Shown here: in pieces, positions 20,843 through 39,282 of the stretch
How positions within the stretch are numbered: position 1 is the first letter of the stretch
Layout: every line of letters starts with the position of its first letter
Virus record (IMG/VR): IMGVR_UViG_3300047510_002509
Length of the DNA: 64,000 nt
Reading direction: 5' to 3' (one strand)
Source: a virus
The notes under the pieces: generated by a model
What the model saw: only the letters and a program-made list of their open reading frames with translations
What the model was told of the DNA's origin: nothing
Databases searched by the model: none
Position numbers and translations under genes: made by a program

Positions 20843-20932
20843 GGGGTAAAAATTTCAGACAACGACCTCCAGCTTTTCAACGGCAAAAGCGAAGAAGAAC
20901 CAAACGAACCGCTTATCGACACTCCTGTCGAC

Positions 20933-21847
20933 ATGCGGCCCGACCTGTCCGAATATGGTCTTATAGAACATGACCGCGGCATCGTCGAAGATACCTATGA
21001 GAACCGCTCCCTCTTGCGAGCGCACTCTTTCCAGTGGGTACCCGTCTATACAGAGAACGGACATCCAACTGGGTTAATCGAGGCCCGCTCCCTTGAGCAG
21101 ATGAAGGAACGGCGACTGATGTCGCTGTCCAGCAAAAGGGCCCTTCTCACTGAGCCACTTCAGAATAACTCCGACTACTTGACGGGTCTGGATCTGGTTG
21201 TAGATTCCGAGGCCTGCAAACTTGTACCTCCTTGGGTACTCGGCGCGACCCGCGCCTATATAAAAGAGCAGGAAGATGGTGGCCCGCTAACGGCTCGGCG
21301 AGCGCCGAAAGCTCTACCCGCCCGCTGCCGTGCGTATACCTCTGAGGGTATCCGCTGTATGTTGTGGTCATCTGGACGTCTGAAAGATGACGGCTTGTGT
21401 CGCCTACACCTCGGCGCGAACAAGAAGACGGGCGCGGACATTGAACGGGCTCGCAAGAAGCTAATGCAATCCGCACCTTACGCTGTGGACAAACTTGAAG
21501 AACTTATGGAGAACGCTGTTTCTGAGCCAGTCAAGCTCAAGGCGGCAACGGAGATTCTCGACCGTGCTGGTATTCGTGCTGGTATGGAAATTGATATCGG
21601 CGTGGAGCTTAAGGATGCTCGTACCCCCGCTGAGATTATCGCTGAACGGCTTGAGCGTCTGAAAGCTGGAGCGGTTGTGATTCAAGGCGAGCTCGTTGAT
21701 CGAACTTCCACACAAGATGCGGAAGTTGTTCTGGAGCTGGATCAGGATCCCCCTAAAATTTTTACCCCCCAGGCTGAAGCGGCCTCGACATCGGAACAAC
21801 TTGAAACACCAGCCATATCGGCGGAGGAGCTAGAGGAGCTACAGTGA
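20933..21847 (+). CDS. Terminase small subunit-like protein
   Basis: C.A....G.RC......GLC.LH.G zinc motif, then A...L..L.....E.V.LKAA.EILDRAG; frame is open upstream to 20843. Confidence 0.55.
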   Translation: MRPDLSEYGLIEHDRGIVEDTYENRSLLRAHSFQWVPVYTENGHPTGLIEARSLEQMKERRLMSLSSKRALLTEPLQNNSDYLTGLDLVVDSEACKLVPPWVLGATRAYIKEQEDGGPLTARRAPKALPARCRAYTSEGIRCMLWSSGRLKDDGLCRLHLGANKKTGADIERARKKLMQSAPYAVDKLEELMENAVSEPVKLKAATEILDRAGIRAGMEIDIGVELKDARTPAEIIAERLERLKAGAVVIQGELVDRTSTQDAEVVLELDQDPPKIFTPQAEAASTSEQLETPAISAEELEELQ

Positions 21848-22044
21848 CAAACGAACAACTTCTTGAATTGGCGCAGCGGCACGCAGAGCGTCTGGAAAAT
21901 GACATCAAGCTGGCCCGCACAAGAGATGAACATATCCGTGTAACGGCACGGGCTAATGAAGCCGCTGAGATGGTAAACGGCTTGCTGGGAATTAAAGACG
22001 GTGAGCCTGACCGCAATAGTCGCGGCATGGGATTTATAGATTAA
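21844..22044 (+). CDS. Hypothetical protein
   Basis: GAGGAG SD, GTGA overlap. Confidence 0.6.
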   Translation: MTNEQLLELAQRHAERLENDIKLARTRDEHIRVTARANEAAEMVNGLLGIKDGEPDRNSRGMGFID

Positions 22045-22085
22045 TTACTAAACTATGCTAGGTGCTAGCATAGTTAGTAATTAAT
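22040..22085. repeat. Near-perfect 46-bp AT-rich palindrome
   Basis: ATTAATTACTAAACTATGCTAG-GTG-CTAGCATAGTTAGTAATTAAT, 21-bp arms with one bulge. Confidence 0.9.
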
Positions 22086-22107
22086 AGTTTGTCAAGAGGA
22101 GAACGGC

Positions 22108-22185
22108 ATGGCTTACGCAGACGGTGACTGTACGAGAGAGCCTATGCCAAAAGACGGCGTGTCAGATATGGATGACCTGCTATGA
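22108..22185 (+). CDS. 25-aa microprotein
   Basis: GAGGAG SD; MAYADGDCTREPMPKDGVSDMDDLL. Confidence 0.45.
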   Translation: MAYADGDCTREPMPKDGVSDMDDLL

Positions 22186-22530
22186 CAACGGATTGCTTCT
22201 GGTGCGGCGAGGAAGTTAATCGGGACGGCGTGTGCAAAAGCTGCGCAGCAGCCCCATTGCCCGATGCCACCACTTCCGAATAACGGCTCGCCCTACAACG
22301 AGGTATGCACCCACACTTCCTGTGAAAGCGGCGAGCAACGGCAAGAGATGATGCAGACCCCAGTCACCTGACGGGTCGGCATGCGCAAGAATTGAAATCA
22401 TTCTTTAATACTAACGGTATGCACGTAGAACTTAGCCCGTAAGTACAACGGTATGTCGTGTAGTAATTTACACCTAAATTACAACGGTAATACTGCAGGA
22501 AGGTTTAGCTGCAGCTTAAGATCCGATCCC

Positions 22531-22955
22531 AACTTCCAAATAACTTTGCCAAGCTAGCGGCCTGGCGTTTTCGCATGAACGCACGAAAAAAGTGCAGGAA
22601 AATGTAACCGCTCGGTGACAACAGCAGGTGTACGTACACTCAACATCCAAATAACTTTTATGCAGCCGCAGCGGATCAGAGCTGTAGGGGGTAAAAATTT
22701 CTGATCCATCGGGCCCGAAGCTGTTGAACTTCCAAATAACTTTGGGTAACGGCCCGCCGCCAGATCAGATTTTTTTACCCCTGAAGCTGCAGCAGCTCCA
22801 GATCAGATTCAACATCCAAATAACTCAGTGCACAAAAAATCCGCTGTTCAAAAATCCTTGACAAGACTTGACAAGGGGTAGTAGGCTAGGTTTCGCAACG
22901 CGGGCGCCGCGAAACTAAAAAGGGCCCGATCAGATCTAACTTCCAAATAACTTTT
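22531..22955 (+). repeat. Array of five direct repeats AACWTCCAAATAACT(TT)
   Basis: Copies start at 22531, 22642, 22727, 22811 and 22938. Confidence 0.9.
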
Positions 22956-23024
22956 ACCATCTCAAGCTGCAGCACCAGGTGCACGCCACTTGCGCAGATA
23001 AAAAATTTATAATAGAGTTGCGGC

Positions 23025-23321
23025 ATGATAGAGACGCTCATACTGTGGAAGCTTTGGAACATAGAAGACAAAATTGAAGGCGAGCCTTCTGGGGAAGATG
23101 GGTATCTCTGGATGGTGATGCTCGGTTCTTTGCTCTGGCCTGTTGGTATCTACTTTGTTGTACGTGAATACTTTGGCAGGTCTAAGTGGCTCGCTCTTTT
23201 TGCGGCGGCAGGGATTGGGTTGCTTACCATCCTTGTGCTACCCGTGTATTTACTCATCTCTTTGATTCTGGTTATTTACGGATTTTCTTTTCTAGATAAG
23301 CTTGACAAAGATGTCAGGTAG
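23025..23321 (+). CDS. Membrane protein (leaderless)
   Basis: TTGCGC-17-TAGAGT-6-ATG; hydrophobic segments. Confidence 0.7.
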   Translation: MIETLILWKLWNIEDKIEGEPSGEDGYLWMVMLGSLLWPVGIYFVVREYFGRSKWLALFAAAGIGLLTILVLPVYLLISLILVIYGFSFLDKLDKDVR

Positions 23322-23331
23322 GTAATAGAAT
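23302..23331 (+). promoter_or_regulatory. Early-type promoter with TGTCAGG spacer box
   Basis: TTGACA-18-TAGAAT. Confidence 0.8.
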
Positions 23332-23376
23332 AACTAACGGAACAAGAGTTCCATACAAAACGATGAAAGGACACCC

Positions 23377-23679
23377 ATGTCAACGATTACAAAAGTAGCG
23401 GCTTTACCCCAGTGTGATTTCTGCACAGAGAAGGCCCGCTTTGACGGCATGACTATTTACGGCCCGTGGGGCAATATGTGTGAACCACACTTTGATACAT
23501 ACGGCGTCGGACTTGGACTCGGCAAGGGCCAGCGGCTCGTCGAAGAAGGAGAAGATGTTGTGATGTCGTGGGGCGAGCTCGCGGATCTCAATCACGGCAA
23601 GCAGGTAGAACTGTTTGGGTTTTGCACCTGTGAAGACGGCCCGTCTGTGTATGAGGACTGCAACGGAGGGAGGGACTAA
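23377..23679 (+). CDS. Cys-rich hypothetical protein
   Basis: CDFC...D..T..GPW..MC..HF...G.GLG.GKGQ; ACGATGAAAGGA leader. Confidence 0.8.
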   Translation: MSTITKVAALPQCDFCTEKARFDGMTIYGPWGNMCEPHFDTYGVGLGLGKGQRLVEEGEDVVMSWGELADLNHGKQVELFGFCTCEDGPSVYEDCNGGRD

Positions 23680-23813
23680 TGCGCGGATACGTTGAATGGC
23701 TTGAGAGCCAAGAGCGAGACGGCTTGGGAACAAGCCACGAAGATTGGATTGACTCGCACCTAGAGAAAGCGGATGCGGCACGGGATAGGGAGACGGATGA
23801 GACTACCGAATAA
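23679..23813 (+). CDS. 44-aa acidic protein (not in ORF track)
   Basis: GGAGG SD, TAATG coupling. Confidence 0.55.
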   Translation: MRGYVEWLESQERDGLGTSHEDWIDSHLEKADAARDRETDETTE

Positions 23814-24213
23814 GTTGTACCACGCCGCACCTGAGTGCGTGCTCATAAATATTCAAACGGAGGGATTGAAATCTAACTTCGGAGAAATCTATGCGGCAAG
23901 CACTCCAGCGGATGCAATGAACTTTATGTGGTTCAGACTTCTTGACCACCCGCACTACCAGTTCGAGAACGGCAAGGTAGTCGGCATGGAACTAGAACGG
24001 CATGACCGTATCTACGTATTTGAAATTTCAACTAACCGCACAAACAAAGAACGTTGGGAAGTTGGGACGGATCACAGCTCAAAATTTTTTGGCGGCGCGG
24101 AGAGTTGGGTGTACGGAGGTAAAAATATCGAACGGCGTGCCATAAGCGACATCACATACTTCTCACGAGAGATGATTGAAACGGCAAGCAGATCCGCTGC
24201 AGCGTCGAACTAA
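23797..24213 (+). CDS. ADP-ribosyltransferase-fold-like protein
   Basis: LYHAA...I..EGL...IYAA..A...W.Y...I pattern. Confidence 0.45.
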   Translation: MRLPNKLYHAAPECVLINIQTEGLKSNFGEIYAASTPADAMNFMWFRLLDHPHYQFENGKVVGMELERHDRIYVFEISTNRTNKERWEVGTDHSSKFFGGAESWVYGGKNIERRAISDITYFSREMIETASRSAAASN

Positions 24214-24276
24214 CATTCAAATAACTACGGTAAGCCCGTGGAGCTCACATTGAGCCCACGGGTTTATTATTTTGTC

Positions 24277-24468
24277 ATGGGTAAAAAAGAACGGGATGAA
24301 CTCAAGCGTCGCATCAAAGGCGTGCCTGGGAACTACGTGCAGAACCAGAAGGCACAGGTCTTTGAAGACCGCCGCACAAAGCGGCTTCGTACCCGTGGGG
24401 TAAAAAACGATAACGCAATTCAAGAATCGTTGATGTCTGATCGCGATCCGCGTCCAACTTCTGAATAA
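24277..24468 (+). CDS. Small basic protein (leaderless)
   Basis: TATTAT-6-ATG; DRRTKRLRTR motif. Confidence 0.65.
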   Translation: MGKKERDELKRRIKGVPGNYVQNQKAQVFEDRRTKRLRTRGVKNDNAIQESLMSDRDPRPTSE

Positions 24469-24568
24469 CTTGGCAATGCCGCCAGGGCCCTCCAGGTTGA
24501 TGGAACTTCCAAATAACTTTCGCTTTTCAAATCTCGCATTTGCTGACTGAACGACACGCCCAAAAAGT

Positions 24569-24608
24569 TTGACAAAGAACTTGACAAAGTGCAGGAAAAT
24601 AATAGAAT
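24569..24608 (+). promoter_or_regulatory. Early promoter with tandem TTGACA and TGCAGGAA box
   Basis: TTGACA-aagTGCAGGAAaataa-TAGAAT; GACACGCC upstream. Confidence 0.8.
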
Positions 24609-24655
24609 GTATTTTGTCTAGGGTTTCCTAGAAAAGTAGAGTAAGGAAAATAAAA

Positions 24656-24898
24656 ATGGCGACAGTTCAAGACCTAATCAAGATGCTTCAAAAAGAATAC
24701 GACCCAACTCAGGCAATCGTCTTTCAATACTTCACAGCAGAGCACGCTGGACTGGAGGAAGAAGAGTTTGTAGAAGTTGCAGACTATCTAATGGATAACG
24801 ACTCATTCGGAGAAGAAACTTCAGAGATGTTTAGTGGCTGGATTACCGAAGCCCAAGATGTTCTAGCAACAGTAGAAGATGAAGAAGAGGAGGATTAA
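24656..24898 (+). CDS. Acidic hypothetical protein
   Basis: AAGGA SD. Confidence 0.75.
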   Translation: MATVQDLIKMLQKEYDPTQAIVFQYFTAEHAGLEEEEFVEVADYLMDNDSFGEETSEMFSGWITEAQDVLATVEDEEEED

Positions 24899-24900
24899 AA

Positions 24901-25071
24901 ATGACAAATTACAAAATCTATGCGACCCTCACCAGAGAGTATGTGGTTGAGGTAGGCGAAGCACAGAGCGAAGATGACGCTATCAACAAACTTGATGACT
25001 GGATTTCAGATGACTTCGAGGATTATGAAATCACAGCCAAGTGGGACTTTGTTGCTGTTCCCTCTGAATAA
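24901..25071 (+). CDS. 56-aa acidic protein (not in ORF track)
   Basis: GAGGAGG SD; MTNYKIYATLTREYVVEV..AQSEDDA. Confidence 0.7.
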   Translation: MTNYKIYATLTREYVVEVGEAQSEDDAINKLDDWISDDFEDYEITAKWDFVAVPSE

Positions 25072-25148
25072 CACTTGACAAATAGTCATAAATAAGTAAT
25101 AATAGTTTCATCCCGAAAGGGATTTCCAAAACGACGAAAAGAGGAAAA

Positions 25149-25871
25149 ATGCCAAACTGGGTATTCAATACTATGTCTATCACAGGAAAAGAAGAAGACC
25201 TCAAGAAGTTTGTTGAGAAGGCGAAGAAGCCTCACAACACTTATTGGGAAGACTGGAAAACAAAAGAAATCAAAGAAGAAATCGACGACAGAGTTATTTC
25301 TTTTTGGAACTTCATCAAACCAGAAAACGAGCAACTTTATTTTGGGGCGAGCGATTACAAGCCAGAGGGTTATGACCAACTGACTGATGCCGAGAAGATG
25401 GCTCTTTCAATGTCATTCAAATCAGATGGTTGGTATGACTGGAACATCCGCAACTGGGGAACTAAGTGGGATACAAGCGACCCATACCTTGAAGACAACA
25501 GCAAGAAGGGCGAGGTTCAATACCAGTTCTCTACGGCTTGGAGTCCTGCCGAAGGTGCTTACCGAGCAATGGTTGAGCAACACCCAGAACTGACTTTTGA
25601 TTTCCACTGTGAAGAAGAGCAAGGCTGGGGCGTGAAGTATGCTGGCGAGAGTGGCGAGTTGGTTGTAGTTGAAGAGTGGGACATCCCGAACAGCCACGCC
25701 GACTACAAAGAGCGTGATAACGAGGACGGATGTGTCTGCTCTTGGGATGCCGACGACCCCGAGAACTGGTATGACGACTGCCCAAACAAGGCGGAGCAGG
25801 TAGCCAAGTTAGTTGAAGGCACGGAGGAAGTTGTTGCTAAGTTTGAAGACATCAGCGAGATGATTGTCTAA
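25149..25871 (+). CDS. DUF1281/YubB ferredoxin-like domain protein
   Basis: MPNW..N; WYDWNI.NWGTKWD; F.TAWSP. Confidence 0.8.
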   Translation: MPNWVFNTMSITGKEEDLKKFVEKAKKPHNTYWEDWKTKEIKEEIDDRVISFWNFIKPENEQLYFGASDYKPEGYDQLTDAEKMALSMSFKSDGWYDWNIRNWGTKWDTSDPYLEDNSKKGEVQYQFSTAWSPAEGAYRAMVEQHPELTFDFHCEEEQGWGVKYAGESGELVVVEEWDIPNSHADYKERDNEDGCVCSWDADDPENWYDDCPNKAEQVAKLVEGTEEVVAKFEDISEMIV

Positions 25872-25962
25872 AGACGGCACGGCGTGGGGTGGGGTAAAAA
25901 GCCCCACCCTCTGCCGACGGCAGGGTAGGATTGGATTTACAAACGGAAGGGTAAAAAACGGC

Positions 25963-26304
25963 ATGTCTAAAGAAGAAAACATTGTTGATGCGGAGCTCGT
26001 CGCAGGCGAGGATTTCGAGGTAAAAATTATCGATCCGCAGCCTATCGAGCGTAGCTTGCACTACTTCGCGCTTGACGGGAACTACGGTAACGCGAGTGGC
26101 ATGCTCGTGCTAGAGACTACGTACTGGAGAGATGTCGACTGGGAGATTCTGGAGTCAGCATCTGATGACCAGCGCGCCAATGTCGCACGGTTGATTACTG
26201 AGTCATACGAGAAGCCTGAAGACATGACGGTGCTGTATGACAAGTTCGAGCAGTACGGTATTGACCTTGATGATTTTATGCCGCGAGACCAGCTTGACAG
26301 CTAG
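25963..26304 (+). CDS. Acidic hypothetical protein
   Basis: Start reassigned to MSKEEN behind GGAAGGG. Confidence 0.7.
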   Translation: MSKEENIVDAELVAGEDFEVKIIDPQPIERSLHYFALDGNYGNASGMLVLETTYWRDVDWEILESASDDQRANVARLITESYEKPEDMTVLYDKFEQYGIDLDDFMPRDQLDS

Positions 26305-26468
26305 GCCTCACGTAGGGTAAAAATATAGAACTGCCGCGGGTTTCTTCGTCGTTATCCCGTGTGCCACACCTGAGCATGTGTAAAAACTGCTCACTATCCT
26401 TTTCTGGCGAGCGCCGATGTCCCCCAAAGAGGGGACAGGAAATAAATCAAAAAGTTATTGCGTTCTAC

Positions 26469-26497
26469 TTGACACGATTGCAGGAAGATGCAATAAT
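26469..26497 (+). promoter_or_regulatory. Early promoter with TGCAGGAA box
   Basis: TTGACA-17-AATAAT. Confidence 0.75.
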
Positions 26498-26536
26498 TAT
26501 CTCAATGCGAAAGCAGAAACGACGAAAGGAAAAATT

Positions 26537-27025
26537 ATGGGATACACCCACTACTATAAAAGAAGTCTTGATAGCAACGACCCAGAACTTTACGACAAGG
26601 TTCGTAAAGGTTTCACAGAGTTAGTAAAAAATGCCGAACTCAATGGCATTACAGTTGCAGATGCTTTTGGAGAAAAAGCTGGCGCATGGCAAGCAGATGG
26701 CGAGCGCATCGCTTTCAATGGTCTTGGAGAAGAGAGTTGCGAAACTTTTTCTTTCTCTCAGATTGTTCCACCTCAACCTCATTGGCGCGAAAACGAAAAA
26801 ACTTTTTTCGATTTCACAAAGACTAATTATCGTCCATACGATGCTCTAGTCTGCGCGACCCTAATCCTTATCAAAGAGGTTTATGGTTCACAGGTTGAGA
26901 TTTCCTCAGATGGTGGTTGGGACGATTGGGCAGATGGCTATGAACTTTACTTCTCAACCTTTAGAAACCCAATGACACCTGAAAAACTTTTTGCCGAAGA
27001 ACTTGCTTTTTTGGCAGGAAAGTAG
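26537..27025 (+). CDS. Conserved phage protein (MGYTHY family)
   Basis: MGYTHY...I.FNG...ETF...F.KT...PYD..V...L...SSDG; ACGACGAAAGGA leader. Confidence 0.8.
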   Translation: MGYTHYYKRSLDSNDPELYDKVRKGFTELVKNAELNGITVADAFGEKAGAWQADGERIAFNGLGEESCETFSFSQIVPPQPHWRENEKTFFDFTKTNYRPYDALVCATLILIKEVYGSQVEISSDGGWDDWADGYELYFSTFRNPMTPEKLFAEELAFLAGK

Positions 27026-27066
27026 TAGATTAGTTTTCACTAGCACCAACGACGAAAGGACACCCA

Positions 27067-27525
27067 ATGCTAGATAACACGAAAGATGTTCAGGGCGTAG
27101 GCGTTTACGCCGAGTTCCGTAAGCCCGGAGCAACAATGCAAATCATTGTCACACCTGATGGATACACAACTGATGGGAAAGATGTTCCTGCCAATTTGTT
27201 CCGTCGAGTAGTGACACCAGCATCACCTAAGAAACAATGGCGCAACAATGCAATTCCTAATCACGCGATTACAGAATTGAGTGGAGTGGCACTTGGTGAT
27301 GAAAAGAAAGAGGCTTTTGCTTCCCAGCGTTTGTTTTTTGCGATTGACTTGTTTGATGCAATAAACAATGGTGGGTGGGAAATTGTCAAAGACGCTTTTC
27401 TTGTTGAAGTTTCCAAAAAAGATTTGGAAGATGTTCGGACAGGAAAGACACCCAACAAACTTCTCTATCGCATTGGTTTGGTTAGAGAAGCCAACGAGTT
27501 CCCACAAGAACTAATACCAGCGTAA
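27067..27525 (+). CDS. Hypothetical protein
   Basis: ACGACGAAAGGA leader; promoter TTGCTT-17-TAGATT at 27003. Confidence 0.8.
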   Translation: MLDNTKDVQGVGVYAEFRKPGATMQIIVTPDGYTTDGKDVPANLFRRVVTPASPKKQWRNNAIPNHAITELSGVALGDEKKEAFASQRLFFAIDLFDAINNGGWEIVKDAFLVEVSKKDLEDVRTGKTPNKLLYRIGLVREANEFPQELIPA

Positions 27526-27550
27526 AGACGACGAAAGGACATAGGGAAAA

Positions 27551-28594
27551 ATGGAAAACACAAATCTTAGAGAGAGATACAACTCTCTCGGTGGTAGTAA
27601 AACTTTGTGGCAGATGGTTGAAGAAGTTGTTGCTCAGGCAGTATCTGAAACTTCAACAACAAATCTATCTGCACAAGTTGTATCTGCGGGGCGTTATGTT
27701 GCTCGCGCTAGTGGCTCAGATAGAGCGCCACGAAAGTCAAAGCAAGTAATTTCCGTAGATAGCATGGAAGGTGAAGAGTCTTACGAAAGACCAAATGGCG
27801 AAATGTATTTTGGTCGCATGTGGGGCGAACACTCAGATGTGATGGCACTTCGCAAAGCGAGAGAAATGACTATGAAGTCTTTCTCAGGTGAAGGTGGCTC
27901 TCCAATGTTTGCACTTATCTATGGCGCTCCGGGTTGCGGTAAAACTGCGATGGTTGAAGCCGCTTTTGGTGATGATGTTGTCACACTCATTGGAACAGGT
28001 GACACCGAAGTTGCTGACATGGTTGGTGGTTATGTTCAAACTCCAAGTGGTGGTTTCGATTGGGTTGATGGTGGTTTAGTAGATGCCGCCGTCAATGGCA
28101 AAGTTTATTTCATTGACGAAATTGGTTTGATTGACCCAAAGGTTTTGTCACTTGCTTATGGTTTGATGGACGGACGACGCGAGTTAGTTGTCACCGCAAA
28201 TCCAGAGCGTGGCACTATCAAGGCTCACCCAAACTTCTATGTAGTTGCCGCGACTAACCCAAATGCTCCGGGAGTTCGTTTGTCTGAGGCGTTGCTATCT
28301 CGTTTCACTCTTCAAGTTGAAATGACAACAGATTGGGCGCTCGCAAAAAAGCTCGGAGTTCCAACTGCGATAGTTACTGCATCACAGAACCTTGCTAAGA
28401 AGCAAGTGTCTAATGAAGTTTCATGGTCTCCACAATTCCGTGAGTTGCTTGCTTTCCGAGATGTTGCGAAAACTTTTGGCAATACTTTCGCTATCTCGAA
28501 CCTACTTGCCTCTGCCCCCGAAATAGACAGACCTGTCGTTGCCGATGTGCTGACAAGGGCTTATGGGGAAGAGGTAAAGCCAGCGAAAATCTAA
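27551..28594 (+). CDS. MoxR/CbbQ/CobS-type AAA+ ATPase
   Basis: GAPGCGKT, WVDG.L..A, FIDEI, ATNP, LSEALLSRF. Confidence 0.9.
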   Translation: MENTNLRERYNSLGGSKTLWQMVEEVVAQAVSETSTTNLSAQVVSAGRYVARASGSDRAPRKSKQVISVDSMEGEESYERPNGEMYFGRMWGEHSDVMALRKAREMTMKSFSGEGGSPMFALIYGAPGCGKTAMVEAAFGDDVVTLIGTGDTEVADMVGGYVQTPSGGFDWVDGGLVDAAVNGKVYFIDEIGLIDPKVLSLAYGLMDGRRELVVTANPERGTIKAHPNFYVVAATNPNAPGVRLSEALLSRFTLQVEMTTDWALAKKLGVPTAIVTASQNLAKKQVSNEVSWSPQFRELLAFRDVAKTFGNTFAISNLLASAPEIDRPVVADVLTRAYGEEVKPAKI

Positions 28595-30633: not shown

Positions 30634-30667
30634 AACCTAAAAACAAAACGACGAAAGGCGGGTAAAA

Positions 30668-31117: not shown

Positions 31118-31127
31118 GGGGTAAAAA

Positions 31128-31613: not shown

Positions 31614-31690
31614 GCGACACGCCCAGCAAAATGTCTTTGACAAGATGTCAGGAAAATGCAAGAATACTTTCAACGACGAAAGGAGCAGAA

Positions 31691-31798: not shown

Positions 31799-31905
31799 TG
31801 ACTATCTGCGCCAGATGCGGTTGGGCTATCCATCAGGATTTTGGGTGGGTAGATGGGTATGGCTATTTAGATTGCGGTGGCAAGCCCCATGTGCCATCAA
31901 AAGTT

Positions 31906-31971
31906 GTTACCAATTCGTTATCAAAAAGTGCTTGACTTGACTTGACAGATGTCAGGAAGGTCGTGTAATGT
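31906..31971 (+). promoter_or_regulatory. Promoter with upstream GTTAC-N6-GTTAT box and TGTCAGGAA spacer box
   Basis: Box 31906-31921; TTGACA at 31942. Confidence 0.75.
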
Positions 31972-32049
31972 TTTATCTATCAGGGAAACCTGAGAACCTC
32001 TCTGAGGGAGTCTCCGAGAGAAATGACATAAAGATAAGGAGTCTTAGTT

Positions 32050-32412
32050 ATGTCTAAGGCATCAGTTACAAAAGCAGTATCAACCCCAGCAGTTGTTGAG
32101 GTTGTAACCACAGCAGAGGTAAAGGCAGACGCCGTTTATCTCGACAAGGCAACACAGATTGTCATTGACGACTTCATCGCGACTCGCGACATGATTACGA
32201 AGTTGGAAAAGACAAAGAAGGAACTAGAGGCAAAAATCAAGGATTATCTTGGTGAGGCTACTAAGGGACTTCTCCCAGACGGAACTCTCCGTATCGAGGC
32301 GTCAAATCGCGAGCGTCGCGGAATTGACACCGAAGCCCTAAAGACAGCCTTCCCAGAGGCATACGAGGCAACACAGACTCTTAGCAAGTATGTTGTCTTG
32401 GTCGCTAAGTAA
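32050..32412 (+). CDS. Coiled-coil phage protein, possibly DNA-binding or recombination-related
   Basis: K..LE..IK..LG; R..ID...LK..FPE.Y. Confidence 0.7.
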   Translation: MSKASVTKAVSTPAVVEVVTTAEVKADAVYLDKATQIVIDDFIATRDMITKLEKTKKELEAKIKDYLGEATKGLLPDGTLRIEASNRERRGIDTEALKTAFPEAYEATQTLSKYVVLVAK

Positions 32413-32503
32413 GACCTAATCCCCCCATTAGGAGCAAGCCCCTCACCCCTCAGGGGTGGGGGGTTTCTTAGTGGAAAAAAATAAAAGACGAAGAGAGGTA
32501 AAA

Positions 32504-32680
32504 ATGACGAAGAGGTATGTTGTTCAGTATTCAGGTTGGGCAGTTGTAGAAGCCAAAGATGAGAAACAGGCTTCCTATGATGTTGGAACTCTACTTGCCG
32601 ATAGTGGCTTACCGAACGATGGTGGCGAAGGTGAGTGGCTAATTGACGAAGTCGAACTTGAAGAAGAGGACGAAGAGTAG
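32504..32680 (+). CDS. Small acidic protein
   Basis: GAGG SD; V.A.DE..A motif. Confidence 0.7.
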   Translation: MTKRYVVQYSGWAVVEAKDEKQASYDVGTLLADSGLPNDGGEGEWLIDEVELEEEDEE

Positions 32681-32689
32681 TAAGAAGAA

Positions 32690-32727
32690 AAAAAAGCCCC
32701 CGCGAAGATGCGGGGGTTTTCTTTTTG
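32690..32727 (+). terminator. Intrinsic terminator
   Basis: CCCCGC-GAAGAT-GCGGGG followed by a T tract. Confidence 0.8.
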
Positions 32728-32843
32728 CTTAGATGCGGGGTAAAAATTCCAGGAGCTGCGGCAGCAACAGCAAATACCTGCACCAGGTGCAAATAACTTT
32801 TCAATGATGCGCCGCTATTTGGTGACATGAACGAACTAGATGC

Positions 32844-32872
32844 TTGACAAAGATGCAGGAAAGTAGTAGATT
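32844..32872 (+). promoter_or_regulatory. Early promoter with TGCAGGAA box
   Basis: TTGACA-17-TAGATT. Confidence 0.8.
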
Positions 32873-32904
32873 AGTTTTTGTCAGAAGGACGAAAGGACAA
32901 ACAA

Positions 32905-33288
32905 ATGCAAACTCTCGACAAGCAAGTAGTAGAACTCGACTCCAGTTGTGTATGCGCCGAAGAAGATGGCACATGGACAGAGTGTTGGGGTTGTTGGGAC
33001 GACTCGAAGGAACTCTATGCAGAAATGCTAGAGGCTTGGAAGCGTGCCATTAGTTTCGATGAAGGCAAACAAGTAGTGCGGATAGATGGCAGGGCTATGA
33101 CTTGGCTACGCCGTGATGGGTATGCCGTAGTTGAGGCAGACAAGGTTTTAGATGCCTTGCAGATAAATGGCGACTTCCGCTTGGTATTCACACTTGAAGA
33201 AACAGAACTGAAGTGCGTGCGGTATTCACATGATGAGCCAGTAGGTGCGTCGTTTACTTTCTCTGCGATGGAACAGCAAGAAGACTAA
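32905..33288 (+). CDS. Hypothetical protein
   Basis: GACGAAAGGA leader; C.C...C.GCW; SHDEP.G. Confidence 0.75.
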   Translation: MQTLDKQVVELDSSCVCAEEDGTWTECWGCWDDSKELYAEMLEAWKRAISFDEGKQVVRIDGRAMTWLRRDGYAVVEADKVLDALQINGDFRLVFTLEETELKCVRYSHDEPVGASFTFSAMEQQED

Positions 33289-33302
33289 GCACAAACTCCA
33301 GA

Positions 33303-33340
33303 AGACTCCCGTATCGCAAGATGCGGGAGTTTTTCTTTTG
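33303..33340 (+). terminator. Intrinsic terminator, paralog of the one at 32690
   Basis: ACTCCCGTATC-GCAA-GATGCGGGAGT followed by a T tract. Confidence 0.85.
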
Positions 33341-33439
33341 TTGAAGATGCAGCGGATCGCGATCAGTTTTGAGCTAGGGGTAAAAATTTTGTCCTGGCGG
33401 GCCAGGCGCGGATCGTAGATGCAAATAACTTTTCGATCA

Positions 33440-33482
33440 GACCCTGCGGACCTTGTGGTCCCTGCGGACCTTGTGGTCCCTG
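33440..33482. repeat. Tandem repeat with 18-bp unit (9-bp sub-period)
   Basis: (CCCTGCGGACCTTGTGGT) twice plus a partial copy. Confidence 0.85.
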
Positions 33483-33547
33483 TTGCGCTCGCCGACACGC
33501 CAGAAAAATAAACTTGACAAAGTTGCAGGAAGGTGAAATGATTCTTT

Positions 33548-33625
33548 TACACACGGAGTCCAGCAGTGGTCACCTGAACGACTTGAACTCTAGAGGGTCG
33601 GAAACAAGATGTTGCTCCGTGTGTA
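33548..33625 (+). ncRNA. Candidate structured RNA or 5' leader
   Basis: 11-bp closing stem TACACACGGAG/CTCCGTGTGTA starting just after the promoter at 33514-33542. Confidence 0.45.
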
Positions 33626-33646
33626 TCTAAAATGACGAAAGGACAA

Positions 33647-33892
33647 ATGATGGCACAAATGGAAATTACAGAAAAAGAAGCAGAACTATCTGCGATGGGT
33701 ATGGCTATGTTGCTTACCTTTATGCAAGAACAAATCAACAAGCACAAGAACCACAAAGATTATTCAATGGACAAGTTGTTTGCGTTGATGGAGATGTATG
33801 CAACGATTGGTGATTTATGGGTGCGGTATCAAATGATTACTGGACTTACAAGAGAAGAAATTGCAGAGTATCTGCAAGAGCAGGAAGGATAA
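33647..33892 (+). CDS. Hypothetical protein
   Basis: GACGAAAGGA leader. Confidence 0.7.
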   Translation: MMAQMEITEKEAELSAMGMAMLLTFMQEQINKHKNHKDYSMDKLFALMEMYATIGDLWVRYQMITGLTREEIAEYLQEQEG

Positions 33893-33894
33893 AA

Positions 33895-34026
33895 ATGGAC
33901 GACATACTAAGAACTGTTTTGCAAGAGGCGAACCAAATTTGTATTGAGTGCGGAAGAAAGTTTGACTTGTTTGATGAGGAACAAGCAGCAGAGTGGCACG
34001 CTGGACACGATTGTGAGGTGGAGTAA
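33895..34026 (+). CDS. Small zinc-binding protein
   Basis: CIECG..F.L..E..A.EW..GHDCE. Confidence 0.7.
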   Translation: MDDILRTVLQEANQICIECGRKFDLFDEEQAAEWHAGHDCEVE

Positions 34027-34028
34027 AA

Positions 34029-34268
34029 ATGGCAGAGCAGGAGAAGCGCGAGTATCACTTCGTAGTTCGCTACGACGCGGACACAGATGAGTTTGACATG
34101 GACTACGACACTTTGATGGCAAAGTTTCATGACAGTCCTATCTATGACCCTGAAACAGGAGAGTGGATTAGATTGAAGGACACAGACTGGGAGAACGAGG
34201 GAACTAATTACAACAACGCGGGTGACGCAATTTGGGACGCGGTAAAAAATCTGAAGTTAAGGAGTTGA
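34029..34268 (+). CDS. Acidic hypothetical protein
   Basis: Operon ORF with SD. Confidence 0.7.
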   Translation: MAEQEKREYHFVVRYDADTDEFDMDYDTLMAKFHDSPIYDPETGEWIRLKDTDWENEGTNYNNAGDAIWDAVKNLKLRS

Positions 34269-34269
34269 G

Positions 34270-34488
34270 ATGGAAGAAGCGATTGACGAGATAAATCTTT
34301 CTCGAACAGTTTTGTTTGTTGGTGACTACTTCTCAATGATGACAACAGTTGTCCTCGCCGAAGAAAAGCGCGAGAAAGATGAAGATGACGATGAGTTTGC
34401 CATTAGGTTGGCAAAGCAGTTTATGCAGGAGTATTACGGCTGGGACTTAGAAGCAGTATCAAATGAAATAGGGATTGTTGAGGAGTAG
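34270..34488 (+). CDS. Acidic hypothetical protein
   Basis: AGGAG SD. Confidence 0.7.
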   Translation: MEEAIDEINLSRTVLFVGDYFSMMTTVVLAEEKREKDEDDDEFAIRLAKQFMQEYYGWDLEAVSNEIGIVEE

Positions 34489-34688
34489 CGGCGCTCGCAG
34501 CAGTAAATAGAGGGTAAAAATCTGGCTTATTCTAGAACTCCAGCGTCGCGTAGTTGGAGCCTAGCTCGCACGCCGCTGATGAGGCGGGATTGCTACCCCC
34601 TGCCGCACCCTCCTTTGCACCCCCTAGCAGGGGAGGAGTGTCGAGTCCTTCCACATCATCTGCCTGTATGAGGTTTAGTATTGATGGT

Positions 34689-34934
34689 ATGGCTGAGATT
34701 GAAATCCTTGACTCCTCTGTTCACCCAAACCCTGAAGGGGAGAAGTTTGTTGCGGCGTTGATTGATGACGCTAATGATGGTCGAGTCAAGTTGGTAATTA
34801 TGTTTGAGGAAGAAGGCTACACGGCTGTTCTTGACTTGGACTCACTAATTGAAGAAGAAGACATCTCTGCAAAAAAGCACACACATCTAGGCGGCAGATA
34901 CGACGCACTCCTGCGTGACCTGCTCTGGGAGTAA
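34689..34934 (+). CDS. Acidic hypothetical protein
   Basis: Start reassigned to MAEIE. Confidence 0.6.
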   Translation: MAEIEILDSSVHPNPEGEKFVAALIDDANDGRVKLVIMFEEEGYTAVLDLDSLIEEEDISAKKHTHLGGRYDALLRDLLWE

Positions 34935-34937
34935 AAA

Positions 34938-35519
34938 TTGACAACGATGGTTGCGGTTCAAGGACCGACATGGGCTGTTGTTGGCTGCGATAGCCAAGTT
35001 ACTGAAGATAATCGCATTTTTGTTCTTCCAAAAGATAATCCAAAGATTGTGAAGAACGGTCCTTTCTTGTTTGGCGCTGCGGGTGACATGAGAGCAATAA
35101 ATCTTCTTGCTTATCAGTTCAAGCCACCTGCGCCGCCTGTAAGTTGTTCAGTCAGCAGATTAGATAAGTTCATCTCCACAAAGTTCATACCTGAGTTGAA
35201 AACCCTGTTTGATGAAGTTCAGTATGGAGAAAAGGGGACGCAAGATTCAGAAATTCTCTGCGTTGTTCATGGACACATCTACGAAATTGGGTCTGGATAC
35301 GATTGGTGTCGCGATCAGACTGGGATTTACGCGTTCGGATCTGGTGGTCAATACGCGTTGGGATCGCTCTACAACCAGCTAGAGGGTAAAAAATTGTCCA
35401 TCACTGCCGCCCGTGCCGCTGTGCGGCGCTCGCTAGAGGTCGCAACAACCTTAGACCCCAACACAGGTGGGTCGTTCCTCATCACAGTTCAACAAGATGA
35501 GTGCCGTCAGCCCAGGTAA
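34938..35519 (+). CDS. Proteasome-beta/HslV-like Ntn hydrolase
   Basis: N-terminal MTT; DSQVT; K; GAAG; GSG..YALG; D.NTGG. Confidence 0.8.
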   Translation: MTTMVAVQGPTWAVVGCDSQVTEDNRIFVLPKDNPKIVKNGPFLFGAAGDMRAINLLAYQFKPPAPPVSCSVSRLDKFISTKFIPELKTLFDEVQYGEKGTQDSEILCVVHGHIYEIGSGYDWCRDQTGIYAFGSGGQYALGSLYNQLEGKKLSITAARAAVRRSLEVATTLDPNTGGSFLITVQQDECRQPR

Positions 35520-35683
35520 CTTTCGTTCCTGCTCTTCTAAACAACTTTTCTAAGTTCCTGCTGGTGCGTCCCCCATTTGTGATGTTTATCAAATTGTTAC
35601 ATTTTCCTGCATTTTGGACTTGACTTTCCTGCATTTCTGAGTATTGTTATCTATGTAAGGAAAAAACGACGAAAGGAAAGACA

Positions 35684-35857
35684 ATGCGAGGATTACCAGA
35701 TAGTGCGGTGTATGGCACATACAAGCGCATAGCAGGTGGCGGTCGCCGTAAGCCAAAGGCTCAGGTCAGTTTGCTTGAGGTCATTATTGAGTGGCTTGAT
35801 GGCTACGAGGCTCGCGTAAGAGAAGAAGCAAAACTAAGAAAAATTAGAGGCTACTAA
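35684..35857 (+). CDS. 57-aa basic protein (not in ORF track)
   Basis: Promoter at 35620 and ACGACGAAAGGA leader. Confidence 0.65.
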   Translation: MRGLPDSAVYGTYKRIAGGGRRKPKAQVSLLEVIIEWLDGYEARVREEAKLRKIRGY

Positions 35858-35860
35858 GAC

Positions 35861-35890
35861 TTGACAAAGTGCAGGAAGATGTAATAAACT
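35861..35890 (+). promoter_or_regulatory. Early promoter with TGCAGGAA box
   Basis: TTGACA-18-TAAACT. Confidence 0.8.
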
Positions 35891-35924
35891 TATCCAGTAA
35901 GACAAAATGACGAAAGGAAACAAA

Positions 35925-36140
35925 ATGTTTGACAAAGCGATTGAGTTCGTAGGACTAGCAGACACTTCCAAGTGGAAGCAAGAGCGTAAGTATGTAGTTC
36001 GCCGTAATGTGGTGTTCTCTGTCGCGCTCGCGGTTGTGCTATTTGCGGTGTGGCAAGTGTCCACTAATTTGTGGTGGACAGAAAATGGCTACTGCTGGGG
36101 AGATTTGATTTCCTGCAACTTCCCTGAAGAAGGGAAGTGA
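35925..36140 (+). CDS. Small membrane protein
   Basis: One TM segment; LWW...GYCWG...C. Confidence 0.7.
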   Translation: MFDKAIEFVGLADTSKWKQERKYVVRRNVVFSVALAVVLFAVWQVSTNLWWTENGYCWGDLISCNFPEEGK

Positions 36141-36141
36141 T

Positions 36142-36633
36142 GTGGCAAAGGGTAAAAAAGCTGGAACAACAGCGCCGACATGGGACGAATTTGTTGAGTG
36201 CACGCCGATGGTTGATGGGAAGCCACGACCTGAGTTGTTGCAGGAAGGCGAGACCATGTGGCAGAACAGGTTTTATGTTGTTTTTAGAACTTACCTAATA
36301 CCTCATCAGGGACATGATGGACCTATCCATCTAAGCATTAGGCATCAGCAACGCAAGGCGATTAGGGACTGGCGTCATTTCCAGCGCATCAAAAACGAAC
36401 TTGCGGGAGCACAAAGAGAAGCAATAGAGATTTTCCCACCAGAAGCCTTGCTGGTTGATGGTGCGAATCAGTATCACCTCTTCGTTTTGTCGATGGGAGA
36501 TACAACCCCCTTCACTTGGAAATCAGGTCGTGCGGTTTCAGGAGAAGAAGGTGGAGAAGAGTTAGAAAGAAAAATGCGCGACATGGGTTTTGACCCAAAG
36601 CAAACAGTTCAAAGACCAAGAGACGAAGGGTAA
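36142..36633 (+). CDS. Conserved phage protein
   Basis: HLSIR....DWR.FQRIKNEL.G...EA.EI.P....LVD.AN.YHL. Confidence 0.75.
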   Translation: MAKGKKAGTTAPTWDEFVECTPMVDGKPRPELLQEGETMWQNRFYVVFRTYLIPHQGHDGPIHLSIRHQQRKAIRDWRHFQRIKNELAGAQREAIEIFPPEALLVDGANQYHLFVLSMGDTTPFTWKSGRAVSGEEGGEELERKMRDMGFDPKQTVQRPRDEG

Positions 36634-36635
36634 AA

Positions 36636-36833
36636 ATGAAGAGTCAGCGCATCGCTGAAGAAGCAGCAAAGTTGTATGTAGATGGTTTGGCAGTTGAGGC
36701 AGTAGCCCAGAAGTTGGGCGTTGCCTACAGAACAGCACGCAAAGCCATAAAAGCAAGTGGGATTGAGTTTAGAGACCCGTCCCAGCGTTTGGTGGGCAGA
36801 ACCCGCCCAGATAGGAGTATTACCAATGCCTAA
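36636..36833 (+). CDS. Helix-turn-helix DNA-binding protein
   Basis: LY..G..VE.VA.KLGV.Y.T.RK.I...G. Confidence 0.8.
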   Translation: MKSQRIAEEAAKLYVDGLAVEAVAQKLGVAYRTARKAIKASGIEFRDPSQRLVGRTRPDRSITNA

Positions 36834-36972
36834 GAACATTGTTTGGACAGCGCTGATTTCGGCGCTCGCAGGGGCAGGTGCAGTCATCTCTGCATTTGTA
36901 GGAGCATCAGATTTCGTGATGGCGTTTGGTGCAGTAGCAATTTCGTCTGCCATCTTGAGTGGAAGAGAGTAA
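36826..36972 (+). CDS. Small 2-TM protein
   Basis: AGGAG SD; hydrophobic. Confidence 0.6.
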   Translation: MPKNIVWTALISALAGAGAVISAFVGASDFVMAFGAVAISSAILSGRE

Positions 36973-36979
36973 CTATTAG

Positions 36980-37375
36980 ATGTGGCTATTTACTGATACA
37001 GGTTTTGTTAGTGCGGTCGTCTCGAAGGAGAACAGAGAGTTGATTTCTGTTCGTGCTCGCGACAAGAAGTCCCTTGAGTCATTTGTGAAGATGTTCAAGG
37101 TAAAAATCGTGGAACTCCAGAACAGGGACTACGAGTATCGTGTCTACATCACTAAAGAGCAATTGACCAAGTGGATTTCCACCCGCGTTGAGGAGTTGAA
37201 CTACGATAACTTCAAGACGCAGGTGACAAAGACCCGTGGCTATGAGTTTGCCGAGCCTCTGCACGGAGTCTGGTATGAGATGCTCGAGGTGTCCGATAAG
37301 CGTAAAAAGACCAAAAAGGGGAGCAGTTTAGGCTCACGCTGGTATGAAGAAGAGCACAGTCTTCCTTACGCGTAG
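36980..37375 (+). CDS. Conserved phage protein
   Basis: MWLFT..GFVSAV...VRAR...DY.YR...Y.NFK. Confidence 0.75.
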   Translation: MWLFTDTGFVSAVVSKENRELISVRARDKKSLESFVKMFKVKIVELQNRDYEYRVYITKEQLTKWISTRVEELNYDNFKTQVTKTRGYEFAEPLHGVWYEMLEVSDKRKKTKKGSSLGSRWYEEEHSLPYA

Positions 37376-37523
37376 TCGGAGTGTCGAGGTTTGACACCCT
37401 TTCTGACCCCTGTGCTATGGTTTTACAGATGAAACGACACATTAGACAAAACGAAGGGCGTCCTAGCCCATTGGTTGCGAGTAACTAGCAACCTGCCCAT
37501 GTCCCCTAACAAAGGAGAAGCAA

Positions 37524-38177
37524 ATGCGAAACCCTTTATTTCGCCATGCCGAAACCACAGTGTTTGGTGTGATAGCAGCAGTGCTAGCAGGAGCAGTCGT
37601 GTGGAGCGCGGCAGCAAGTGCAGAAACTAATCGAGTAGATGCAGTAGAAGCAGCAGCCCCCGTTGTTGTTGTTAATGAAGAAGTGCGGCTATTCAAAGTA
37701 GTTGCGGCGAAGATTGACAGAGCTGCGACAGAAGAGAAGAAGCTGCAAGAGGTAAAAAATCTGAAAGCCGAGATACAGCTTGAGCTGTTTGAGGAACGAA
37801 AAGTCCCTCTAGCTGAGATAGAACTAAAGAACTTACTGAAGTTGGTAGGTTTTGAAGGTCAATCCCTCAAGGCAGCTTGGGCTATCGTGATGACTGAATC
37901 CAATGGTCGTCCAAAAGCACATAATGGGAACGCCTCAACAGGCGATAACTCATACGGACTATTCCAAATAAACATGATTGGTTCTCTTGGAGAGGCTCGT
38001 AGAGCCAAGTATGAACTCAAGTCCAATGATGATTTGTTTGACCCAGTAACTAACGCAACCATCGCATACAAGATGAGTGCGGGTGGAACTGACTTCTCAG
38101 CGTGGAAGGTTAGAGGGTATAATCAAGGTAGTGAGAGATTTAGAACATTTCTCGCTGAATACCCATCAGATAAATAA
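37524..38177 (+). CDS. Secreted lytic transglycosylase (SLT/lysozyme-like)
   Basis: Signal or TM segment; AIVMTES.G catalytic Glu; SYGLFQIN; DP..NA; F.AW. Confidence 0.88.
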   Translation: MRNPLFRHAETTVFGVIAAVLAGAVVWSAAASAETNRVDAVEAAAPVVVVNEEVRLFKVVAAKIDRAATEEKKLQEVKNLKAEIQLELFEERKVPLAEIELKNLLKLVGFEGQSLKAAWAIVMTESNGRPKAHNGNASTGDNSYGLFQINMIGSLGEARRAKYELKSNDDLFDPVTNATIAYKMSAGGTDFSAWKVRGYNQGSERFRTFLAEYPSDK

Positions 38178-38186
38178 AGGATAACC

Positions 38187-38843
38187 ATGAGCGATGAGAA
38201 AAACCTAAACGAGGGCACTCATCACCCTGACATTTTGGACCAGGGTGGCGTCAATGTCCCACAAGGTTTCAACCCAGATGCAACCGATGGTGATGGTGAT
38301 GGGTTCGTGCAAGATGGTACCGAGTGGGAGCGTCCCGTTGATGGGTTCAATCCAGATGCCAAAGATGGCGATGGAGATGGATTTGTTCAAGACGCAACCA
38401 AATGGGAACGCCCTGCGGAGCCTGTTGCTGTTGCGGTAGAGCCAGAAACTATTCCAGTAGTGATGGCAGCAGCTGTTGAAGAAGCAGCTCCAGTTGTAGA
38501 AGCAGCTCCAGCTGCACCTGCAAAGAGAAACAAGGGTAAAAAATCCAGCACATCAGCTGTGATCCCAACGGAAATCGAAGAAGGATCTGTTGTTCTTCTT
38601 TCTAAACTCGTATTTCAGTCAAACACTGAGCAGAACAGCAACTCCGTTCGTGTACTTCAGGCTCGTTTGATGGAGCATGGCTACATCACTGCTGGTGATG
38701 ACAAGCCAGGCTGGGTAAGTACGGGAACTGTTGAAGCCCTAGAAGACTACAAGAAAGATAATGGAATCGAAGCAGATAGTATTTACGCCGAGGACGTCAT
38801 CAAGTCCTTGTTTGTAGGCACATCAGTTCAAGTTCTTCCATAG
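38187..38843 (+). CDS. Protein with two DGDGDG repeats and a C-terminal peptidoglycan-binding-like domain
   Basis: GFNPDA.DGDGDGFVQD.T.WERP twice; V..LQ.RL...GY...G.....T..AL..Y. Confidence 0.7.
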   Translation: MSDEKNLNEGTHHPDILDQGGVNVPQGFNPDATDGDGDGFVQDGTEWERPVDGFNPDAKDGDGDGFVQDATKWERPAEPVAVAVEPETIPVVMAAAVEEAAPVVEAAPAAPAKRNKGKKSSTSAVIPTEIEEGSVVLLSKLVFQSNTEQNSNSVRVLQARLMEHGYITAGDDKPGWVSTGTVEALEDYKKDNGIEADSIYAEDVIKSLFVGTSVQVLP

Positions 38844-38945
38844 TTTTACAAGTATCAACGCCCAGTATCTCTGAGAAAATCGGAGTGCTGGGCGTTGGTG
38901 TTTTAACGCCAACGCATGGGTACGGACTATGGAAGGGCGGTTCTC

Positions 38946-39215
38946 ATGTCAGCATACAAAATGAGTAAGAAAACCTCTGGGATTATGAAAAGAATCCTTG
39001 CGGTGTTCTCTGCATCTGGGTTGTCTGTGATTGGTGCTGGTGCTATTGCTGGTGTCGAACTATGGCAAGCAGTCTTGATGGCAGGTATTGGTGGTGTAGC
39101 AACAGTGGTTGAAGCCCTGAGTCGCGCATACCTTACCGATGGCAAGCTCACTGAAGATGAAATTAATGACATCTTCGTTGAGGCTGAAGCAAAAACATCT
39201 AAGAAAGCAAAGTAA
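38946..39215 (+). CDS. Holin-like membrane protein
   Basis: Hydrophobic segments; DGKLT..EI; start uncertain. Confidence 0.55.
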   Translation: MSAYKMSKKTSGIMKRILAVFSASGLSVIGAGAIAGVELWQAVLMAGIGGVATVVEALSRAYLTDGKLTEDEINDIFVEAEAKTSKKAK

Positions 39216-39282
39216 TTCAGATGTTGGAGGGCCTGGTGATCGGAATTTTTACCCTCCCAGGCCCTCTACTCCCATAGCAAAA

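Follow-up and report, generated by a model that had tools for sequence, protein, structure and literature searches.

The DNA analysed here, called the window below, is a stretch of 64,000 nucleotides from the IMG/VR virus record IMGVR_UViG_3300047510_002509. It belongs to a large uncultured freshwater phage whose relatives include DSL-LC01 and phages of about 190 kb from Microbacterium (e.g. Pumpernickel) and Arthrobacter, and no close cultured DNA match to it was found. The WhiB genes of three close relatives point to an actinobacterial host. Our subject is a short polar DNA site, the 10-mer RGGTAAAAAW, and the islands of palindromic words that surround its copies in DNA otherwise purged of such words. 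The region that holds it is very probably a long terminal repeat and the first DNA to enter the cell. Its main features are as follows.

20,791-40,871: predicted long direct terminal repeat, about 20.1 kb, placed by homology to the sequenced termini of cultured relatives
20,791-24,500: inner part of the repeat, unpurged, with the TerS-like gene and the repeat block; GATC and GGCC at 4.6/kb (unique DNA: 0.6-0.7/kb)
20,844-39,254: array of RGGTAAAAAW, 25 copies (22 plus, 3 minus), with 0 copies in the other 44 kb of the window
20,844-20,853, plus strand: first motif copy, overlapping the start codon of the TerS-like gene, about 55 nt from the putative left end
20,852-21,847, plus strand: TerS-like gene, with a probable ATT start and a conserved reverse motif copy at 21,758-21,767
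22,530-24,520, plus strand: repeat block of seven ACWTYCAAATAACT repeats and an inverted motif pair (22,689; 22,771), its last repeat at the desert edge
24,500-40,871: palindrome desert, the outer 16.4 kb, with early-type genes and sigma-70-like promoters
36,636-36,833, plus strand: helix-turn-helix (HTH) protein of 65 aa with a basic tail, a candidate reader only
39,227-39,266: hairpin with the last (reverse) motif copy at its tip, just left of a convergent terminator
40,831-40,911, plus strand: conserved right-end signature, with a predicted cut after about 40,871

The ends of the repeat were placed through cultured relatives. Eleven cultured records have a gene 1 homologous to the open reading frame at 20,933 (35-39% identity); the gene is present twice in each, and one of these records labels it terminase small subunit. 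The distance from the left end to the start of gene 1 is 61-62 nt in Pumpernickel, Cece and A3Wally, whose direct repeats measure 19,963 bp, 18,079 bp and 15,503 bp, respectively. In the window, ATT at 20,852 stands directly behind the motif, in register with ATG or TTG of the relatives; from this probable start the left end would fall near 20,791. On the right, the stretch 40,831-40,911 aligns with and runs across the sequenced termini of the cultured relatives, and it is well kept in 15 related loci. With both ends mapped in this way, the motif field would fill the repeat of about 20.1 kb, an assignment that we infer by homology. A non-coding C-rich run of short degenerate repeats lies just inside the right end (40,380-40,830), in a style like that of the Pumpernickel terminus. 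The repeat region of one relative (L120) is binned in a metagenome-assembled genome of Ca. Limnocylindrus (Chloroflexota), either because this is the host or by binning error, and it is not taken as the host here.

How strongly is the repeat purged? The observed and expected counts in the desert are 1/34 for ATAT, 5/44 for TTAA, 4/34 for ACGT and 6/45 for GTAC. In unique DNA, avoidance is mainly of GATC, CCGG and GGCC. Palindromes make up nine of the ten most depleted 4-mers of the desert, which argues for selection on double-stranded DNA. Past the predicted right end GGCC, ACGT, TTAA, GTAC and ATAT return at 40,884-40,984, and over 15 loci the purged words step from 5-10/kb inside to 11-53/kb outside. 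Deserts with a sharp inner edge are found in many of 48 related loci and not in cultured soil relatives. Restriction-site avoidance of this broad kind is limited to the terminal repeat, as in the first-step-transfer region of T5-type phages, and the desert is an extreme case of this known rule. The depletion around the motif islands is explained by the probable long terminal repeat of the phage, which the original prediction had not recognised. Both desert edges would be explained most simply by entry that starts at the right end and pauses near 24.5 kb; entry from the left end first fits them less well and stands as a less probable direction. No restriction enzyme that acts on ATAT or TATA is known to us; both words are purged in the desert of the window (24,600-40,400), so undescribed host specificities may exist. 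ATAT and TTAA are also wholly absent from 49 kb of DSL-LC01 (10,000-59,000, L098), GATC and CCGG from all 117 kb examined of G001 (L102-L117), and CGCG from L012 and L016.

The original prediction started from the 8-mer GGTAAAAA, and a recount agrees with its places and counts: 24 plus and 3 minus copies in 20.8-39.3 kb, and 5 elsewhere in the window. No other 8-mer of the region is as over-represented: it has 24 copies on the plus strand against 0.84 expected under an order-2 Markov model. The effective signal is longer than was first proposed, namely the one-directional 10-mer RGGTAAAAAW. In a relative of 118 kb, 19 of 19 motif copies fall inside 18.8 kb. Many GGTAAAAA copies lie inside genes in different reading frames, as had been claimed (12 of 24 plus and 1 of 3 minus copies); 5 copies overlap a start codon, 1 copy lies 13 nt ahead of one, and several are placed after terminators. 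With respect to transcription, 24 of 27 copies are on the sense strand. Third synonymous positions in related phages are conserved at 145/156 (93%) inside the motif vs 4231/7341 (58%) outside, a retention on which the prediction had relied. The exact 10-mer is under purifying selection in the repeat, and it is a selected DNA site.

The two ends of the array are also kept. The TerS-like start is overlapped by a motif copy or a close variant in every motif lineage examined, and in most lineages a reverse copy 1.6-2.8 kb before the right end closes the array. The hairpin that carries this copy in the window has z of -2.8 to -4.5 in five lineages, and the stem sequences are unrelated between lineages. 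Similar 3' hairpins, in L128, L137, L142, L149, L154 and L156 as at 39,227-39,266, hold a reverse-motif T-run at the tip, complementary to the sense copies. Another hairpin of this type lies at 28,580-28,615, and its loop matches the ribosome-binding region of the AAA gene. A search of Rfam gave no match.

Is there any tie between the motif and the palindromes that remain in the desert? Motif positions were circularly shifted through 24.5-40.87 kb, and the closeness of words within 75 bp was counted. All 14 GATC of this range lie within 75 bp of the motif (shift mean 2.3, maximum 10, p<=0.0004), and this count and the GATC-free gaps are as given in the original prediction. Its extension to other words held for AGCT (21 of 28) and GGCC (5 of 5; both p<=0.0004) and more weakly for CCWGG (6 of 11, p=0.015); GCWGC, which it overlooked, shows closeness of the weaker kind (13 of 23, p=0.007). 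ACGT, GTAC, TTAA and TATA have no association with the motif in this test. Examples of islands in the window are given below.

31,337-31,407: coding island that surrounds the 31,363 copy and holds three GATC as well as AGCT
33,349-33,438: intergenic island, 4 GATC, AGCT, GGCC, 2 CCWGG and GCWGC around 33,378, with a terminator on one side and a promoter on the other
35,313-35,393: coding island in an HslV-like gene, the motif being present in 9 of 9 orthologs with 55-86% protein identity
37,721-37,814: coding AGCT island in a transglycosylase-like gene, around 37,750
38,466-38,587: coding island, AGCT, GCWGC and GATC around 38,534

In ten related loci pooled, the density of AGCT is 11/kb within 50 bp of the motif, 3.4/kb at 50-75 bp and about 0.5/kb beyond 100 bp. 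The zone is roughly symmetric, with full effect to about 50-55 bp and fading by 75-100 bp; the closeness had been seen correctly, and the proposed reach of about 70 bp had not. Islands cover about 15% of the desert. Note that the pooled lineages are kin, so pooled p-values overstate significance, while the shift test within the window is free of this problem. Islands persist inside genes, which rules out gaps between genes as their whole explanation. With amino acids fixed, coding DNA holds 63 AGCT against 29 expected near the motif and 35 against 267 far from it, whereas the control words AGCA, AGCC, AGCG, ATCA, AATC and GATA show no near/far difference. These codon-aware counts and non-palindromic controls rule out an artefact of protein coding or composition. 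The original observation is confirmed.

The islands depend on the motif itself. AGCT reaches 10.6-11.4/kb around exact 10-mers, 0-2.9/kb around single-base variants and 0.6/kb around plain A-tracts, and the last value rules out any A-tract as the signal. Orthologous windows have 10.2/kb with the motif vs 1.4/kb without it. Islands are weak (3.2/kb) around copies specific to a lineage, as though they grew with age. Lineages with a variant motif have islands at their own variant, with AGCT, CCGG and GCNGC in L169, GCWGC in L182-L206, and TCGA, TGCA and TTAA in L188/L195; a separate group (L156/L160/L164) has AGCT, GATC, CCWGG and GCWGC. In L139-L150 the motif is present, AGCT is unpurged and no AGCT clustering is seen. 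The pattern is real, conserved and lineage-tracking, and as far as our literature search reaches, neither the motif nor islands bound to it have been described. Other sources were rejected. A ribosome-binding junction alone covers 5-6 copies, where islands are weaker (AGCT 4.8 vs 11.9/kb). For an extended motif with fixed offsets, the AGCT and GATC offsets are broad except for a GATC peak at +13, and there is no consensus beyond 10 bp. The BAAAA methylation motif of marine Acidimicrobiia does not explain the islands either, as BAAAA is not confined to the motif.

Are the island sites packed there, or only spared? Within about 55 bp of the motif GATC and AGCT, and also CCWGG, GCWGC and GGCC, stand at neutral density or up to about 1.6 times of it. 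Coding GATC was seen 8-9 times in islands against 7-10 expected, 0-1 against 27-31 far from the motif, and 14 against 76 in unique genes. Codon pairs of Asp with a codon starting in C form GATC in 11 of 24 cases near the motif, 0 of 97 far and 28 of 276 outside the repeat. For AGCT, Glu/Gln/Lys-Leu pairs form it at 51% near, 3% far and 40% outside (p=0.16), and x-Ala pairs at 23%, 1.4% and 14% (p=0.002, with lineages non-independent), and the island rate is about 1.3-1.65 times the rate outside the repeat. The proposal of bait packed above chance is weak on these numbers. Its example, 8 GATC in 22,520-22,940, was counted correctly, but four of them lie 150-170 bp from any copy. Island sites are mostly "not purged" rather than "packed", which is tolerance more than packing. 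The tolerance is also selective by word. Near the motif, this clade keeps ACGT, GTAC, TTAA, TATA, ATAT, AATT, CATG, GGATG and CCGG at low density, and in L007-L012 and L016 GATC is absent even beside it. A return of restriction-type palindromes in general, as first proposed, did not hold, since ACGT, GTAC, TTAA, TATA, ATAT and CCGG are purged as strongly in the desert and show no recovery beside the motif. Half of the purged words stay purged in the islands, and a general or uniform shield is therefore not supported.

What kind of factor could leave such a record? The effect needs the exact 10-mer and follows motif loss and motif variants; together with the synonymous retention, this argues that a sequence-specific factor acts at the motif. 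That part of the original prediction stands. Its blanket shield and its bait are not supported, and the selectivity by word supports an enzyme-selective footprint instead of them. The account that we favour tentatively, rating it as a whole just short of an even chance, combines a first-entry repeat, a protein bound to the 10-mer and islands as by-products of its footprint. As in T5, delivery and expression would begin with the purged part of the repeat. A protein that recognises the sequence, most likely one of the phage's own, would be made after entry, occupy the 10-mer with about 110 bp around it, and stay on the repeat through replication and packaging. It would probably shut off or insulate the strong early transcription units, and its primary job may be this, in a stoperator-like way, or repeat handling in duplication or packaging. 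The bound protein would keep host methylases off nearby AGCT, GATC, CCWGG and GCWGC. Elsewhere in the first-entering DNA methylation would reach the same words and, in the next host, expose them to cutting by methyl-directed nucleases, which would account for their purging outside the islands. Type II enzymes would cut the naked incoming DNA before the phage protein exists, and so their words would be purged everywhere. The islands would then be an evolutionary footprint. The parts of this account differ in strength. A protein footprint, of a protein that we infer from the sequence, is quite probably the source of the islands; given such a footprint, exclusion of methylases as its chemistry falls noticeably below an even chance.

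There is background for several of these steps. Sites in the DNA transferred first expose T5-like phages to restriction (PMC10644984; PMC12455610). OxyR bound at opvAB leaves GATC unmethylated (PMC4856963), though this concerns single bacterial regulatory loci, while here about 25 phage sites show the effect in sequence evolution over long times. Methylated DNA is reported to be cut by a type IV enzyme from an actinobacterium (PMC3009677). Some observations weigh against the footprint account. AGCT in islands is above neutral, which is unexpected under pure tolerance. The 3 reverse copies are not on the transcribed sense strand. No reader was found: the TerS-like protein changes little across lineages with unrelated motifs, and the same helix of the 36,636 HTH protein accompanies several motif variants. 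In seven draft genomes of lake Actinobacteria no methylated motif was detected (PMC6329791).

Other explanations have to be weighed against the same evidence. The width and symmetry of the islands, which are footprint-like, would also suit a steric shield at entry, in which a virion-borne or host protein on the 10-mer directly blocks some restriction enzymes, a protection in cis like that by P1 Dar, but directed to a site. The 3137-aa multi-domain and 1398-aa proteins of the head operon could supply it, and across lineages many words are relieved somewhere, including CCGG, TCGA, TGCA and TTAA. Yet ACGT, GTAC, TTAA, ATAT, TATA and CCGG are still purged inside the islands of this lineage, 0 of 14 island GATC form a 6-bp palindrome where 3.5 are expected, and about 15% coverage of the desert is a poor return if protection is the purpose, so we consider such a shield unlikely. 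Could the sites be methylated locally instead? The factor would then admit or recruit a host methylase, island sites would be packaged methylated and resist the cognate enzyme, and the phage would block methylation elsewhere. The word selectivity is accounted for equally well in this way, the mild AGCT excess fits, and T5-like phages suppress host methylation genome-wide (PMC10644984). However, the three main methyltransferase families are absent from five related contigs, one of them 90% complete, and we found no precedent for methylase recruitment, which leaves local methylation improbable. Repeat handling as the primary job (duplication, end cutting, packaging or staged ejection) would have TerS or a partner read the motif and the islands arise from wrapped DNA. 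It draws on the array's first copy, which overlaps the TerS start about 55 nt into the repeat, with GTAAAA at the same place in Pumpernickel, on inward-pointing copies at both array ends in several lineages and on the conserved hairpin that bears the terminal copy. No such array is present in cultured relatives whose repeats are laid out alike, and the motifs of other lineages do not start at TerS; we find this explanation quite unlikely, a little less so than local methylation, and it is compatible with the footprint step of the favoured account.

Positive selection of the island sites is very unlikely in our view. They might serve as bait, as a methylation sensor or as co-sites for another protein; or the phage's own host-degrading nuclease might target these words, which would be masked close to the motif. 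AGCT at 1.3-2.2 times expectation, depending on the baseline, would agree with this, as would the inner 3.7 kb, rich in GATC and GGCC relative to the rest of the genome, and self-avoidance has been proposed for T5 A1 (10.1101/866236). On the other side, island GATC stands at neutral density, the distances of sites from the motif spread widely and change from one relative to the next, the word set varies by lineage, and L139-L150 combine the motif and unpurged AGCT with no AGCT clustering. In addition, no nuclease was found among the repeat genes, and only 2 of 31 GATC fit the Gbn consensus. The polarity might also follow the transcript, the motif being an mRNA target of an antisense loop or a ribonuclease. 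Such an RNA signal would suit the bias towards the sense strand and the copies that overlap start codons, and the last reverse copy, shown in the loop of a 3' hairpin, is complementary to the sense ones. But it leaves the double-strand palindrome islands unexplained, several copies lie past terminators, and plus copies are in hairpins at 3% against 2% for the control. As the main explanation it is highly improbable; it may be a second use of the same word.

How does the locus compare with known systems? Like the first-step-transfer DNA of T5 and BF23, it is a long direct repeat of small early-type genes, with restriction sites avoided in the part exposed first (PMC10644984) and a non-coding block full of repeats at its inner edge that resembles the injection-stop region of T5 (10.1101/866236). 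It differs in that the repeat is twice as long, the host is probably actinobacterial and nearly all 4-bp palindromes are purged, and the T5 literature that we found reports no dispersed polar signal with tolerant islands. The repeats of Pumpernickel, Cece and A3Wally share a homologous gene 1, a homologous right-end sequence and a length of 15.5-20.0 kb, but they have no broad desert (only AATT and TTAA are low) and no motif array. To our knowledge, P1 DarA/DarB and the phage polyvalent proteins have no recognition motif or local footprint. They are alike in that virion proteins are reported to guard DNA against restriction (PMC12810830, PMC5512222), and the head operon here encodes a giant multi-domain protein. 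The stoperators of cluster A mycobacteriophages are more than 20 asymmetric, transcription-aligned sites in an actinophage; they are 13-mers spread across a temperate genome, at promoters and in short intergenic spaces, and their known repressor is a 183-aa protein of the L5 gp71 type (PMC9283540). In the window a 10-mer is confined to the terminal repeat and half of the copies are inside genes. The layout is stoperator-like, but membership fails on site length and distribution.

Several neighbouring genes are of interest for the reader of the motif. The 65-aa HTH protein is present wherever the motif clade could be checked, in a search that itself required that helix, and a 164-aa HTH-like protein was also noted. 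The structure model of TerS (predicted template modelling score 0.28, no fold match) is too poor to judge a reader role. The conserved protein at 27,067 folds well and has only weak WGR-like matches (Z 4.1-4.7). It belongs to a family-wide trio at 27,067-30,510, a 152-aa weakly WGR-like protein, a MoxR-type AAA ATPase and a vWA protein, and the longest motif-free gap spans this trio. In the head operon, the 3137-aa (45,740-55,153) and 1398-aa (55,732-59,928) multi-domain proteins are likely ejected polyvalent proteins; an exonuclease domain is the only domain detected in the former. The methyltransferase families absent from the five related contigs, all incomplete, are PF01555, PF00145 and PF02086. 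No member of the A1/A2 family turned up in scans of the repeat genes, which were not aimed at A1/A2.

Other repeated elements occur in the same regions. A second repeat, CAAATAACT, lies upstream of several sigma-70-like promoters (22,530-24,520; 32,785-32,800; 33,417-33,432), which also share GACACGCC before the -35 box and TGCAGGAA in the spacer. L163, L167, L158 and L177 carry a variant element, TATATAAAGGGGAAAAA, between terminators and promoters, often behind a partial inverted half-site, and one copy lies about 25 nt ahead of the right-end signature. Distant desert lineages have other repeated motifs: GTATTTATTTTT in L030, L035, L040 and L046, with CGCG clusters at it in L035 and L046; GTATCCACTTTT in L044 and L055; GTATTCATTTTT in L059 and L063; TGCTATCAAGG in L017; and TTAGTAGCA in L061. 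In the left 12 kb of Gordonia phage Forza (1-12,000, L100) there are about 15 one-strand copies of a TGTAGC-based repeat containing AGCT.

What does the pattern mean for this phage family? Protection of first-entering DNA, staged delivery and rebuilding of the repeat are still open questions even for T5 (10.64898/2026.04.02.716235; PMC10644984). The evolution of restriction sites can be read here as a natural footprint, and the pattern sorts host enzymes into two classes, those blocked by the factor and those not. The 10-mer, the footprint width, the mismatch series and the lineage variants are ready bait and controls for a factor hunt, and in many uncultured relatives the ends of the repeat can be located by sequence. 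It is possible, though we hold it as doubtful, that the locus represents an undescribed system, in which a sequence-specific factor at about 25 polar sites along the first-delivered repeat sets the methylation or cleavage fate of about 110 bp each, and in which site, reader and tolerated words co-diverge across a large family of freshwater actinophages. If this is true, the genome would record both the footprint and the binding preference of the factor without any experiment.

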